64,000 nucleotides of DNA from Eledone cirrhosa (GCA_964016885.1 OZ024743.1:97278001-97342000); one strand, 5' to 3'; positions 1,173-62,381 are shown, counted from the stretch's first letter. The notes: a model not told the origin generated them from the letters alone. A program made the numbers and translations.

Positions 1173-1681
1173 TATTAAAATAACAGATTAAAGTTTAAGC
1201 AAGGAATCGCTGATTTCACCCTTAACGGGATCTTCTGAAACTACCAAAGTCAATCTGCGAACGCAGAAGTGAATATTTCAAAAAACGTTGCAACCGGAGG
1301 AAGACAGGAAGACGATACTTTGGTTCGTGGAAACGTTCCCTGGCAAAGAACGGGAAAAAACGAATATAATACGTCATTATTTGGAGCGGTGAAAAACAAT
1401 TACACGCAAAGACAAAACGACGTTTATAGTATAAAAGAACCAAAGTATCGTCTTCCTGTCTTCCTCCGGTTGCAACGTTTTTGAAATATCCACTTCTGCG
1501 TTCACAGATTGACTCTGTTAGTTTCAGAAGGTCCTGTTAAGGGTGAAAGCAGCGATTATTTGCTTAAACTTTAATCTGTTATTTTAATAAATATTTGCTC
1601 TACGGTTCTTATATATTTGATATACATTTATCCTTATCGAGCCCTCTTTGGATTTTAGTCTTCAAATTTATTATTGTTACT
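1173..1681. mobile_element. Fold-back element with two outward-facing HHRs (CAGAAGA family), between (TA)n tracts
   Basis: Arms ~1173-1326 and ~1437-1589 are reverse complements, with a one-sided tail to 1681. HHR motifs at 1184-1257(-) and 1505-1578(+). Homologous to 15085, 41965 and 59265. Confidence 0.85.
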
Positions 1682-2712
1682 ATATATATATATATATATA
1701 TATATATATATACATTCATATGTATGTTTGTGTTTATTTGTGAGTGTGTGCGGGTGTGTAAAGTTGTGTAGTGTGTCTGCAAGCAAGATTTGATTATAGT
1801 TAATTGTATATTTATTGCTAGCACTAAATATACAATTACTATGTTAATTTAGACGCCTATTTCATGCTTATTTTAACGGAAGAATGATATGTCGCACTTT
1901 AAACATGTTTAAACTTGAAGGTTTGTTTAATATGTACTTTTATAATTTACTCTTCATTTTGTCTAGCTTTCAAGTTTAATGTGTACTTTAAAATTCAGGT
2001 CATTTTATTTCATTGATCGTTAGGGGATGTATTTAGAATCAACCACCCGACCACTTTTTTATTAAGTTATATGCTTATATTTGAATACGAAATATATCAC
2101 TATAGGTGATTTAATTTCGTTGTCATTCCAAGTTCACCGTTACTATTAAAAGTTTCCTATTCAAAACATAATATCTTAAGTAACAGTCATTTACATAACC
2201 TTCAACCGTTGATTTAAATCCCTGCCGCATATATCTGAACACAAAAAGATCATTGCGATTCTTTACTAAATTTTAACTATAAATTAAATATATTCTTTAT
2301 CTCTAAAAAGCAGCTGTGAATCGTAAATGTTGCTAGGTTGTTGTTTTGTTTGTTTTCTTCTACCTGTACATAAAGGTTGTAGTAGTTTGAAATAGGTATT
2401 TCCTCCTACGTTAGAAAAGATACAACCATGTATTGAAACAGCTTCACTGTTGCCTTTCATTGAACCAGTAATGAGGAACACAAATAACGTCTATAACAAG
2501 AACTACTATGTGAGTATAATTGAAGGGGAAAGATGAATATCGAATATATCATATGGATATATATCTATATATTACTTTAAACCTTTTCTGAAAACATTTC
2601 AAATGAAAGACTGCCTATGTTTTGAGGATACAGCCGGATGAATTATAGACAGTTGCTTCTGATAGGCCCCTCATGAAGGCGCATGTGAGAACTCTGTTCT
2701 ATGGCTCTCCCA

Positions 2713-2782
2713 GGAAGAAGAAGAAGAAGAAGAAGAAGAAGAAGAAGAAGAAGAAGAAGAAGAAGAAGAAGAAGAAGAAGAA
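2713..2782. repeat. (GAA)n microsatellite
   Basis: Direct reading. Confidence 0.95.
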
Positions 2783-3574
2783 AAAGCTGTATTTTGTGGG
2801 GTTTAATAATATAACTAACTTTATTATTTTTAAGCTGTTGTTTGGAGAATACCAAAGGGTGGTCTCCTACTATCAAAAGTATTAATCTGAGAAATAATTA
2901 GGTGTGGGTCTTACCTGGTCAGGTACAGACACAAAACTAAATAGTTATGGTATGTTTGTCTATATAATATACAAATCTAGACTACGTCCAAATCAATTTA
3001 ATCAATTTAATGAAGATAGGAGCTGACAAAATGAAGGTATGTAGGCGTAGAATTCACCAATACCAACACAACAAAACACGTAAGGTGGTCAAAAGTGTGA
3101 GCAATGGGCTTAAAAATATAGAAATTGACTCAGGAACAGCGCATAAATGACACACATGATTCACACTACATTCCTTACTTCATACACAAAAACATGCAAC
3201 TATCATTGAAAGTTCTCAACATGATATTCTGAAGTAATTGAATTAATGGGAGACAGCGTGTCTTACATTATGGGGACATTTGCATATATTTGTATGACAT
3301 TTGTGTCATTTTGAGAGAAAAAAAATATTCAGATTGTTCAAGGAGAATATGGAAGAAATTTAAGTTACCGACACACAAATATATATATATATATATATAT
3401 ATATATATATATATATATATATATATATATATATATTATATATATGTTTATAATTATGTGAGTCTGTGTGTGTGTGTGTGTGTGTGTGTGTGTGTGTACG
3501 TATCTCCAGACATGCAACAACGGATATAAATCACATTAAATGAAATAATATCAACCAATGACATCCATTTTATT

Positions 3575-3970
3575 AGAAAGAGAGAGAGAGAAAGAGAGAG
3601 AAAGAGTGGAAGAGAGACAGAGATAGATAGAACGAGAGGGGGTGAGAGAGACAGAGATAGAGCGAGAGAGATAGATAGAGAGAGAGGGAGACAGAGATAG
3701 AGAGAGCGAGAGAGAGAGAGAGAGAGAGAGAGAGAGAGAGAGAGAGAGAGACAGTGATAGATAGATAGATAGAGAGAGCGAGCGATAGAGAGCGAAAGAG
3801 GAAGAAAGAGACAGTGATAGATAGATAGATAGATAGATAGAGATAGATAGAGAGAGAGAGAGAGAGAGAGAAAGAGATAGAAAGACCGAGAGACAGAGAT
3901 AGACAGAGAGCGAGAGAGAGGGAGCGAGAGAGGGAGACAGGGAGAGTGAGAGTGAGAGAGAGAGAGATAA
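3575..3970. repeat. Compound (GA)n/(GATA)n simple repeat
   Basis: Direct reading. Confidence 0.95.
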
Positions 3971-4944
3971 GGTAGAATATGTCTGCTGTGGGAAACAATT
4001 TAACTCAACACAATACTATAATACATTCAACATATAACAGTAAATTCGCAAGTTAAATGGTTCCAAACTATTGATCATTTAACTATATCTTATCCAACAT
4101 TCAATGGTTTTTTTGCCCATTATCTGCAAGTAAAGCAGTTGGCTTCCATAAAAATTTCTCTATCTTTCATTTTACTTCTTGGCTTTTCGAAAAATTTATA
4201 TAAATTTTTAAAAAATAGAAATGTTTCTTAACCTTTATGATGTTTTCTTATTATACGTTTTACGCTGTTTCGTTTTGTTATCAAATTAACGCTTTAATAC
4301 AAAATATGTCGCCTGCTGTTGAAACAACGCACACACACTTTCATATGTATGTGTACAAACATATATATATATATATATATAAAACATACACACACACACA
4401 CAGATAGATATACACGCGCATGTATATAATTTCAATATTCTAACACCGGGTGGGATAATTTGTTTAAAACATAAAAGTTATATATATATAAAAAAAAAAA
4501 TATATATATATATATATATATATATATATATATATATATATATATATATATATATATATATATATATATATATATATATATAATATATAGTTTGAGTTTG
4601 AATTATTTTTTTTCCACATCTTACGTTAACTATTTTCCCATTTTGACGCTATAGTCACTTATATATTATGGAATACTGTTGGCTTTTTGCTACAATACTT
4701 TCTATACGTTTCATTTATATATATAATATATATATATATATAATATATATATATAAATATATATATATATATATATATATATATATATATATATATATAT
4801 ATATATATATATATATATATATATATATATATATATAATATATATCTTTATATATATATAACTTTTATGTTTTAAACAAATTATATATATATATATATAT
4901 ATATATATATATATATATGTGTGTGTATATATATATATATAATA

Positions 4945-60695: not shown

Positions 60696-60717
60696 ATATG
60701 TATATATATATATAAAT

Positions 60718-61098
60718 CTAAGTATGTATGTATGTATACGTACATACATATCTGTATACAGACGTACAGTAGTATGTATATATACATACATGCACACATA
60801 TATATATGCACGTATCGGTTTACCGAACATTTATTATAATGCCCGGTTTGTTTGTTTGTAAACAGTGTACGGCGTAATTCGGGCTGTTTGTTTGTTTGTT
60901 TGTAAACAGCCCGAATTACGCCGTACACTGTTTAGGCAACCGATACGTGCATATATATATGTGTGCATGTATGTATATATATACATACTACTGTACGTCT
61001 GTATACATATATGTATGCACGTATACATACATGCTTACATTTAAGTAACAGCCGTACTAAGAGTGAGAAATGAAATTTCGATTCATTCTATTCCATTT
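60718..61098. mobile_element. Fold-back fragment of the ~430-bp unit lacking the HHR (another fragment at ~880-1030)
   Basis: Inverted halves around ~60895; homologous to 15780-16005. Confidence 0.75.
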
Positions 61099-61409
61099 AT
61101 ATATATATATATATATATATATATATATATATATATATATGTGTGTGTGTGTGTATATATATATATATATATATATATATGTATGTGCGTATGTGTGTGT
61201 GTGTATGTGTGTATACAGTACACAAGACGGTCGGCTGAAACATTCATAGGGCTGACCAAGATACTCTCATGGATTATTTCTCAACATCTTCTCTGGAAAA
61301 CTTTGCAGTTATTAACAAGAAAAGTTGAAATGTGTGCATGCAATATCTCAGAGCGCTAACATCACACCTTCATAATCCTCATATGACCTCTTCACCCAAC
61401 ACTCGTGTA

Positions 61410-62180
61410 TATATATTCTCTATTCTAGGGCGGGTAAAATTCCCGAGATCCATGGATGAGTTCTCTTCCTCCAGCGGTCTCTGTCCCTCATTATCGCTGC
61501 CATGTCCTGCGTCTCCAACAGACCGGTGTCTGTCCTTTTGGCATCAACATACGTTAATCTTGTCTTCCTCTTCCAGTGTGTCCATGTAGGTGCTCCCATA
61601 GGAGCACTGAGTGCAATCTCAACTCTGGATGCCGGTGAGCATGTCCAGCTAACCTCAGTCTCCTCTGTATCAGTTTTGAGCTGACTTTTGGGAGGCTCCT
61701 ATACAGCTCTGAGTTTTTCATCCTCAGAGTATACTGATTAATGTTCAGAGCCATCCTCAGCATTCTTGTGTAGCACTGAATTTGCCGACGACATAGTTTT
61801 GGTGACAAAAACAGTGAAGGAGGCAGAGGATTTGATGCGGGAGGTTGAGACTGTGTGGATGAGTGTGGGGCTGAGAATGAATGAGGCTAAAACAAAATAT
61901 CTGGTAGAGAATGTTGAGAAGCCAGAGGGGATTACTAATGTAGGCGGGAAAGCCGCTAGAATTGGTTGAGGACTTCCTGTATTTGGGAGCAAAGATTGGG
62001 AATACGGAAGTTGATGTGGTTGAGAGGAAGAGCAAGGCCTGGGAGGCGTGCCACAGCTTGAGATCGGTGTGGAAGTCGGACCTTTGTAAAGACCTGAAAA
62101 TCCGCCTCTTCATTGCTGTAGTGGAGTCTGTGCTGCTGTACGGGTCTGAGACTTGGACACTGACCAAGAAACTCACTAAG
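61410..62180. mobile_element. RTE-like LINE with 5' inversion
   Basis: Plus 61777-62180: FADDI...GLRMNEAKTK...FLYLG...VLLYGSETWTLTKKL. Minus 61775 to 61410: CYTRMLRMALN...RRLRLAGH...LLWE..GR and 3' end. Confidence 0.9.
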
Positions 62181-62381
62181 TAGTAACACAACAGTTAGTT
62201 CACCATACCGAAAACAATTGTTTCACCTTATGCAGATCTCCAGCTCGGACTGGTCATGGTTATACGGAACAGGAAGAACGTTCTTCCTGTTCCGTATAAC
62301 CATGTCCAGTCCAAGCTGAAGATCCGCATAAGGTGAAACAATTGTTCTCGGTTTGGTGAACTAACTGTTGTGTTACTACTT
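62178..62381. mobile_element. Spacerless 204-bp palindrome with two outward HHRs
   Basis: Centre AAC|GTT at 62279/80. Plus HHR at 62311-62351: CCAAG-CTGAAGA-T-CC..GG-T-GAAA-CAATTG-TT|CTCGG. Minus HHR at 62208-62248 (core CTGGAGA). Confidence 0.88.

Follow-up and report, generated by a model that had tools for sequence, protein, structure and literature searches.

The hairpin-like elements that crowd a 64,000-nt stretch of the Eledone cirrhosa genome (GCA_964016885.1, OZ024743.1:97278001-97342000; hereafter the window, with positions counted from its first letter) are best read, with a probability of about 0.7, as insertion products of many Hydra-clade families of Penelope-like elements (PLEs), together with non-coding tandem units that hitch-hike on them. 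Most of these products would be cut down to the 3′ end with its hammerhead ribozyme (HHR) motif, and their head-to-head arrangement would result from nicking of both strands of a (TA)n target, whereby each nick primes one cDNA. An initial annotation of the window had proposed 5′-truncated, non-autonomous ribozyme retroelements of the PLE type, and this is borne out by seven families that form the ends of coding elements with reverse transcriptase (RT) and GIY-YIG domains and by four that are non-coding tandem units. Its description of them as non-coding fold-back elements of their own kind does not hold in the main, since in most families the arms are 3′ untranslated regions (UTRs) of coding elements and the junctions differ from copy to copy.

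Two 3′ ends and one tail per insertion

All nine pairs of HHRs listed in the initial annotation were recovered where it had placed them, with the left HHR on the minus and the right HHR on the plus strand, and they fall into seven families (A and B twice; B′, C, D, E and G once). Family A is represented by a fold-back in (TA)n at 1168-1697 (tail-less left arm 1176-1438, minus, C3 of the HHR core at 1237; right arm 1437-1680, plus, C3 1525, with a tail of ~100 nt) and by another at 59250-60700 (C3 59420 minus in the shorter, tailed arm; C3 60628 plus). The fold-back of family C at 16778-18156 is built of a 591-nt non-coding tandem unit (HHRs 17100 minus and 18002 plus), and its left arm ends in a 175-nt tail formed by the beginning of the next unit. 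Family D (31800-32628; C3 32027 minus in the tailed arm, C3 32540 plus), family E (37424-39535; C3 37472 minus, C3 39403 plus in the tailed arm) and family G (62178-62445, a hairpin; C3 62243 minus, C3 62316 plus in the tailed arm) follow the same plan, as does the near-perfect hairpin of family B′ with its 2-nt centre (40700-41157; C3 40797 minus, C3 40970 plus in the tailed arm). Family B has a small fold-back at 48458-48856 (48563 minus; 48656 plus, tailed arm) and a large one at 52250-57433, whose left arm of ~1.25 kb (C3 52451 minus) ends in a ~100-nt tail and whose right arm (55292-57433, C3 57328 plus) corresponds to the 3′ UTR, 2.1 kb long, of a coding PLE. Only the left arm is interrupted, by an unrelated insertion of 1.7 kb (53286-54982). 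A one-sided tail and (TA)n flanks were present in all nine pairs, in agreement with the extra 3′ tail noted initially, except that the G hairpin ends in (TC)n and sits in a fragment of a long interspersed nuclear element (LINE).

The outward orientation is general. In a genome sample of 75 stretches of 10 kb (750 kb, taken at round coordinates on 21 large contigs and thus not strictly random), same-family pairs on opposite strands within 6 kb were divergent in 21 cases, belonging to 17 separate elements, and convergent in none, so that all 17 sampled elements obey the rule seen in the window. Control pairs of different families were divergent in 21 and convergent in 30 cases.

Downstream of the HHR, the arms of each family end at one or the other of two fixed 3′ positions, which are separated by 70-175 nt. 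Counted from the predicted cleavage site, the near and far ends lie at +29 and ~+130 in family A, +55 and ~+150 in B, +50 and ~+190 in D, ~+20 and +90-100 in E, +35 and +97 or more in G, +60 and +224 in M and +19 and +119 in O, the far ends blurring into TA. Among 48 insertions of families A, B, D, E and G whose two arms abut directly, 45 have one near and one far end; of the remainder, two scored as far-far (L303, L310) prove to be near-far once the whole unit is followed, and L296 is near-near. The same combination was found in 34 of the 37 insertions of family O, whose single "convergent" row lies between two neighbouring elements. Combined, the rule holds in 79 of 85 insertions (binomial p ~2e-17 against independent tails); each of the five fully seen two-armed insertions of family C also had one end of either kind. 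The tailed arm was the longer one in 17 insertions, the shorter in 21 and equal in 7 (45 in total; one of them, L309, was mis-scored and belongs to the longer). At the junction the arms overlap or leave a gap of -4 to +4 nt (within 4 nt in 38 of the 48), whereas the 5′ breakpoints vary from locus to locus. While the basic architecture is already known, the two-fixed-end rule, counted in 79 of 85 insertions and independent of arm length, is new here.

In family A, 6 of 21 arms that bear an open reading frame (ORF), from 20 loci picked by the 5′ part of the ORF, begin +171 to +175 from C3, immediately past the far end, and each of the six has a near 3′ end. In one locus (L298) the element spans exactly one unit, near end to near end.

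Coding carriers and non-coding tandem families

On their upstream side, the arms of families A, B, D, E, G, M and O are continuous with RT-GIY-YIG ORFs, which supplies the coding PLE partners for which the initial annotation had suggested a search. The link was seen in two loci of family D (L311, L313), three of E (L200, L203, L205), three of O (L330, L331, L337) and 7 of 14 of G, and in family B a 3′ UTR of ~2 kb leads into the ORF (L046, L053, L054, L081). The unit of family A measures 3262 bp in the order pseudo-long terminal repeat (pLTR)-tail-ORF-3′ UTR-pLTR, with a UTR of 0.8-0.9 kb. A partial tandem of the pLTR, in which the tail is the start of the next unit, was seen in families A and M. 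Since both flanks of the insertions are (TA)n, a target-site duplication would be indistinguishable. The sole coding remnant in the window belongs to family M (49562-51211, minus), with an HHR 350 nt behind it; its relatives in L056 and L057 have an open RT-GIY-YIG frame of 927 aa. Further ORF pieces include one of 656 aa in L310 and remains in B, D, E, G and O. A supposed link of family B′ to an ORF in L208 was withdrawn, that ORF being related to family O.

Pfam matches to the ORFs were weak (RVT_1, E 0.012; GIY-YIG, E 0.09). The proteins carry RWK/RWR, DKT/DRT, CxCX5C, and CxxC plus CxH around the conserved E and N, and they lack CCHH as well as a CxxC inside GIY-YIG. The full set is present in A and M, the C-terminal set in D, E and O, and CxCX5C only in the pieces from B and G. 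The Hydra clade is defined by RWK- and DKT-like motifs, a CxCX5C linker, lack of CCHH, CxxC/CxH around E and N, canonical HHRs and insertion into (TA)n (PMC8557442), so that by its motifs the coding set would belong there. Long inserts rich in Asn, Arg, Gly and Ser stand between RT and endonuclease in family M and a D relative (L057:4483-7263, L052:851-2869, window 49562-50386) and resemble the N-rich inserts of rotifer Penelopes (PMC3846280). Full-length protein homologues of ~700 aa with 33-40% identity (at least 120 among the matches listed, one named from Argonauta) were mostly on public contigs of 2.2-3 kb, approximately one element unit.

Four families are of another type. For family C, a 591-nt head-to-tail unit, the genome search yielded 12 candidates that are 93-100% alike; family H forms head-to-tail arrays of ~430 nt, the longest ATG frames being 75 aa and 68 aa, respectively. 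Families K and I show partial second units only, of ~525 and ~478 nt, and no ORF was present upstream in 14 and 12 loci of 3.3 kb. All four have one type I HHR per unit and acquire a different inversion at each site. Two other tandem HHR arrays with an inverted 5′ arm occurred in the genome sample (L107:8460-9764 and L116:5268-6069, with units of 310 and ~467 nt).

Tandem HHR units are treated as retrozymes likely moved by PLEs (PMC7229834; preprint 10.64898/2026.07.22.740005). Families C, H, K and I resemble the non-LTR retrozymes of animals (PMC7229834) in being non-coding and head-to-tail, with units of 430-591 nt and one type I HHR each, but they exceed the quoted 150-450 bp and show the insertion signature of PLEs, namely two 3′ ends, one tail, head-to-head inversion and TA flanks. 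Retrozyme-type units are thus tied to the PLE machinery through their insertion scars, which bears on the proposed mobilisation by PLEs.

Hammerhead motifs and their core variants

A strict descriptor of type I HHRs, which misses U3-A8, A4/C4 and long-stem-II motifs, matched the window 7 times, against 0-2 times in 30 + 30 shuffles. With a widened descriptor that admits all Watson-Crick combinations at the 3-8 pair, every base at position 4 and a stem II of up to 70-95 nt, 19 high-scoring motifs (score of at least 18) were obtained, compared with a mean of 0.68 (maximum 3) in 25 global and 0.44 (maximum 2) in 25 local dinucleotide shuffles. Homology search and the motif table together brought the census to 34 motifs with a placeable C3 and 5 half-motifs. 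All core bases are kept in 26 of the 34, and in 24 stem I is also formed; these 24 show the type I arrangement of a C3UGANG8A/GAAA/UH core and stems I-III, open at stem I. The initial figure of over 30 HHRs consequently stands when decayed and partial motifs are included (~39), with core and stems intact in only 24. Damaged cores were found in 4 of the 18 paired motifs (A9G at C3 1525, C3A at 48563 and 48656, A6G at C3 62243), and the pair annotated at 17018/17997 is a U3-A8 variant with a long stem II.

An alignment of 19 related motifs, drawn both from the window and from loci elsewhere, has an invariant core; of the 20 pairs in its stems, 16 vary on both sides, and 92.6% of the cells are paired against 32-52% when the partners are slid, although these motifs were chosen by a pairing descriptor and are thereby biased towards structure. 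On two of the points that would have refuted the initial annotation by its own account, frequency against dinucleotide-shuffled sequence (19 high-scoring motifs against under 1) and covariation, the outcome was in its favour. When the 3-8 pair was left unpenalised in the 750 kb, 69 C3-G8 and 11 U3-A8 motifs were found against 0 and 4 in two shuffles, and the mismatched classes stayed at shuffle level. The Rfam scan of the window gave no hammerhead match at the gathering score; ranked by E-value, it was swamped by microRNA models on TA/CA repeats, with no hammerhead in 150 of its 340 rows. Minimum-energy folds of eight monomers, not used as evidence, had stems I and II in most, with the full three-way fold clear only in family I and partly in C.

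Stem III is 4-9 bp long in families A, E, I and O, which, judging from this pairing, might fold as HHR monomers. U4 is replaced by A or C throughout whole families. The HHR, a putatively self-cleaving motif, would be a passenger of the 3′ end of the element.

Density in the genome

The source genome (3.0 Gb) is AT-rich and microsatellite-rich. In the sample, 99 motifs reached a high score, where shuffled versions gave 5, 6 and 3; this corresponds to 1.32 per 10 kb (bootstrap 0.93-1.79) or ~1 per 8 kb; together with those of the window and its neighbours, the high-scoring motifs form 51 sequence clusters. By extrapolation, the genome is estimated to hold ~375,000 of them (260,000-520,000). The window, with ~3 high-scoring motifs per 10 kb, has about twice the sample density, and the earlier figure of about one HHR per 2 kb is a local one that counts decayed motifs. 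A library of the window families accounts for 3.8% (2.2-5.7%) of the sampled DNA and for 28% of the window itself, as a lower bound, which together with the silence of Rfam supports the earlier suspicion of an easily missed bulk component. The motifs are clustered, 36 of the 75 stretches having no high-scoring motif and others up to 8, and a (TA)5 lies within 300 nt downstream of 69 of 85 motifs (background 25%). Insertions were seen stacked within each other's (TA)n flanks (L298:5313-5531, L053:7331-7547 and others); such piling up would explain the clustering.

Published counts are smaller, with >6,000 in a coral, ~5,000 in a mussel and up to 120,000 retrozymes in axolotl (PMC7229834), and with about 2,000 plus 1,300 minimal motifs in Schistosoma (PMC4209133); the descriptors behind these numbers differ from ours, and the literature search was not exhaustive. 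The curated repeat annotation of an octopus lists Penelope-like families and 893 unclassified recent families of short interspersed nuclear elements (SINEs), and hammerhead, ribozyme and Hydra go unmentioned in the accessible part of that paper (PMC13282606). Repeat annotation could file the present elements as SINEs or as miniature inverted-repeat transposable elements (MITEs).

A fixed 5′ stop and the half-ribozyme family O

Some families also share a 5′ stop close to the ribozyme core. Among loci picked without regard to these families, the start lies at -9 to +2 of C3 in 17 of 57 A arms (mode -5; expectation from the flanking density ~1.3), at -7 to +1 in 6 of 12 E arms and at -5 to -2 in 7 of 14 G arms; the B arms cluster at -55 to -66 in query-chosen loci. 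Family O is the extreme case: 19 of the 75 stretches together contain 39 of its arms (~150,000 arms by extrapolation). Among its scored arms, 64 of 70 stop within 12 nt of one point inside loop II, the anchor limiting the range on the 3′ side, and because both arms of an insertion stop there, they keep only the 3′ half of the HHR. Long copies of family O have a CUGAGAA core in which C3 stands opposite A8, a non-canonical combination (with one more damaged exception).

Arms of A and O stop at the A of a TTAGT motif, those of E at the A of CCAGA. These points fit an initiator pattern, and they also fit a splice acceptor. The Penelope of Drosophila has an internal promoter with initiator and downstream promoter elements (PMC2377424) as well as an intron whose end lies at helix I (PMC4209133). 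The stop might accordingly be a 3′ splice site, but the AG is retained in most copies and upstream exon letters are not shared. Two other explanations fell away: the -5 stop is not the 5′ edge of a master pLTR, as the upstream pLTRs of full copies start at many places and none at -5, and a sub-lineage made up of the small fold-backs (minis) found no support, the 16 minis of family A sharing no diagnostic variants against 50 long copies. A 5′ end at or next to the first base after the predicted cut was seen in one H arm (window 18371) and two of the 57 A arms (L193:2389-2587); run-off from cleaved RNA is possible for these arms, which are too few for a test.

Proposed mechanism and competing explanations

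We propose that an enzyme of the element would nick both strands of the (TA)n target and that each nick would prime one cDNA, one starting at the near and the other at the far site. Both cDNAs would grow away from the flanks, inward, stop early and then be end-joined with little or no microhomology. Two-nick priming of this kind would turn the 3′ ends and HHRs outward and leave one tail per insertion, whatever the arm length. In L1 twin priming, two target nicks also prime two cDNAs and yield a 5′ inversion, with the second primer annealing internally and the arms lacking overlap; here, by contrast, both cDNAs start near the 3′ end, so the arms copy each other. No twin-priming account of PLE inversions was found in the literature searched, outside which subscription papers and supplements lay. 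The closest biochemical parallel comes from in vitro work on Poseidon of Anolis, in which cutting and extension affect both strands of the target and reverse transcription begins at two internal RNA positions that mark off the tail, downstream of the HHR and reaching into the ORF; its protein is a predicted dimer, and insertion does not require the HHR (PMC11167929). Poseidon belongs to another clade, and the paper, in its accessible parts, does not apply these results to inverted arms.

Two additions to this scheme are put forward more cautiously. Both starts may lie on one tandem or circular RNA, to which the A arms halting at the upstream far site point; circular RNA templates have been proposed for PLEs (PMC4209133). 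The minis of ~75-250 nt, in turn, might be run-off copies of RNAs begun at the initiator-like motif at or inside the HHR. A tentative combination, which we consider somewhat doubtful as a whole, has a dimeric enzyme carry out a two-primer reaction on one RNA using both nicks and both starts, with one cDNA halting where the other began, and would derive most copies by run-off from short pLTR-initiated transcripts. The genome would then be littered with several hundred thousand SINE-like hairpins, the densest HHR load among the counts compared. Family O, one of the most prolific, would be spreading with a non-canonical core and mostly as half a ribozyme, so that cleavage would be dispensable in vivo and the motif would be kept for another job or as a passenger.

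Several points weigh against the two-nick scheme or limit its reach. Best-hit searches, which favour young copies, supplied part of the loci for A, B, D, E and G; exceptions to the end rule exist (L296, near-near; L294, far-far and outside the 48-row table; 3 of 37 in family O); the stop at the upstream far site was found in family A only, and in the only testable copy of family M (L057) the stop is at +190 and the far end at +255. None of the A arms that pass an upstream HHR stops at -5, and the transcript-start idea must therefore invoke longer or circular templates. A link to an ORF or a tandem unit was not established for B′, B″, F, J, L and N, and Hydra membership is assigned by motifs.

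The strongest competitor is snap-back of a single cDNA or self-priming on an antisense template, the latter argued for rotifer Penelopes (PMC3846280), with the tail trimmed from one arm at resolution. It would readily account for near-perfect palindromes with centres of 0-2 nt (B′ at 40884), for the tight junctions (within 4 nt in 38 of 48) and for the private variants common to both arms in L221 and L127. Endonuclease trimming after snap-back could even mimic part of the end pattern, a further point against the two-nick scheme, and the tail has been ascribed to endonuclease-mediated resolution (PMC8557442). A copy cannot hold sequence that its template lacks, however, yet the tail is on the shorter arm in ~20 of 45 insertions and tail-only arms occur. 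If trimming were the cause, it must have taken off a single tail, always at the same fixed base, in 79 of 85 insertions, and near-ended arms stopping at the far site are not predicted. We thus regard this origin as unlikely, and plain snap-back, one of the two routes suggested initially, leaves about half of the cases unexplained.

Fold-back elements that move as a unit with masters of their own, be they MITE-like or hairpin retrozymes, are suggested by the near-fixed size of the O and A minis, both arms of which stop in the same 10-nt window, and by the four non-coding families. This is quite improbable, as junction letters and breakpoints differed in every locus examined rather than sharing ends and centre as MITEs do, long arms enter ORFs, the A minis have no diagnostic variants, and the non-coding families are head-to-tail units newly inverted at each site. 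Least of all, with a probability close to nil, would motifs arisen by chance in AT-rich palindromes suffice, or fold-backs created artificially during library preparation or assembly. Rfam is silent at its gathering score, and short-read contigs hold family B at great depth with none spanning a junction; but chance origin is already refuted by 19 motifs against under 1 in window shuffles, 99 against 3-6 in the sample, the compensatory changes and the C3-G8 and U3-A8 counts, and artefacts sit poorly with arms that differ by 1-7%, one of which received a later 1.7-kb insertion. Two-nick priming with two fixed starts remains our preferred reading.

Comparison with known systems

Head-to-head arms with a one-sided tail, opposite-strand HHR pairs included, are an already published PLE structure, as described in PMC4209133, PMC3846280 and PMC8557442. 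The insertion unit of endonuclease-positive (EN+) PLEs comprises a partial tandem, an adjacent inverted 5′-truncated copy, a one-sided tail of 30-40 bp and a bias to microsatellites (PMC8557442). The present insertions share with it (PMC8557442, PMC3846280) the partial pLTR tandem, strong 5′ truncation, the inverted head-to-head copy, the one-ended tail, an HHR in the pLTR and microsatellite targets. They differ in tails of ~70-175 nt against the published 30-40, in 3′ UTRs of 0.9-2.5 kb and in the reduction of most copies to the HHR region. For the Hydra clade, 21 Repbase families and a few others have been published, generally <3 kb (PMC8557442), whereas the units here are at least 3.3 kb and at least 8 families occur at very high copy number.

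The minimal type I HHRs of PLEs come as dual motifs 100-700 bp apart on opposite strands, and U3-A8 cores are known among them (PMC4209133). Likenesses are the unpaired base at the start of stem II, a short palindromic stem III and many divergent families per genome; differences are the published thousands per genome against the estimated total here, the longer stem III of A, E, I and O, the change of U4 to A or C in whole families and the C3 opposite A8 of family O.

What goes beyond the routine is the scale, the Hydra assignment, the length of the tails, an end rule that was counted and tells the models apart, a 5′ stop at a fixed point and a family with half a ribozyme. The origin of inverted one-tailed PLE insertions has been open since their first description, and the end classes of thousands of young copies here favour one model. 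A little-known clade emerges as a bulk component of the genome that makes up no less than about 4% of the sampled DNA, and dozens of natural hammerhead variants (U3-A8, A4, C4, long stem II, C3/A8) become available.

Further insertions and other features of the window

Apart from the nine pairs, family A has a mini at 15069-15228 (tail-only arm 15086-15172, minus; arm 15175-15225, plus, with the 3′ half of the HHR) and an insertion at 41948-42279 (tail-only arm 41965-42031, minus; arm 42021-42279, plus, C3 42208). Family H occupies 15292-16718 (plus) with three tandem ~430-nt non-coding units of the retrozyme type (HHRs 15700, 16133 and 16560), preceded by an inverted arm (15292-15400). A minus-strand H fragment at 18191-18371 has its 5′ end at the first base past the predicted cleavage site (inverted match to 15731-15858; cut at 15730), and an H fold-back fragment at 60722-61097 is without an HHR. 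Family I at 7277-7693 (plus) combines an HHR (C3 7376) with a 57-bp inverted arm (7286-7342), its ~478-nt tandem unit being found elsewhere, and family K at 51529-52144 an HHR (C3 51783 minus, U16.1C) with a 180-bp inverted arm, its ~525-nt tandem unit likewise lying elsewhere. In the O mini at 18630-18870 each arm has the HHR 3′ half only, and a single O arm with the 3′ half stands at 35428-35490 (minus).

Single plus-strand arms belong to a D-related family (6554-6716, C3 6633), family L (33251-33500, C3 33334) and B″ (37206-37400, tailed, C3 37214). An HHR-like motif of family N (C3 38289, minus) lies inside the family E fold-back. Family F forms a hairpin at 40235-40640 with decayed HHR cores in both arms and a plus-strand arm with a decayed HHR at 51230-51406. 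Family J at 46896-47260 has a U3-A8 HHR (47062 minus) and a short inverted arm (47198-47250), and a J-related decayed arm occurs at 41583-41790 (minus, motif 41734). The M element at 49131-51215 (minus) is a 5′-truncated, frameshifted PLE of putative Hydra type with remains of the RT thumb and GIY-YIG and a U3-A8 HHR at 49212. The 3′ part of an HHR from a further family lies at 57820-57920 (minus).

The insertion that interrupts the large B fold-back consists of two related units of ~0.75-0.95 kb that start with TAGCAG after a CTAG-type context, contain (GTCT)n-rich internal repeats and have a TA-rich tail end, which we take to resemble a non-autonomous Helitron-type element. L1/Tx1-like LINE fragments (zf-RVT, E 7e-6) at 42684-43825 and 58329-58934 are two copies 84% alike, and 61450-62177 holds rearranged fragments of another LINE RT, which the G hairpin adjoins with no TA flank on that side. 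Two more hairpins in TA flanks at 6994-7151 and 8595-8785 are without an HHR, the first matching the region beside family I elsewhere. No tRNA was predicted in the window by ARAGORN. A 2.9-kb minisatellite of ~21-nt units at 11135-14025 is also self-complementary. Finally, a repeat of ~180-270 bp without an HHR, probably a SINE, is very abundant (>100 matches in 54 of the 75 sampled stretches), with window copies at 112-292, 383-517, 10888-11062, 22217-22563, 25338-25460, 30635-30902, 31740-31796, 34806-34997 and 39651-39977.

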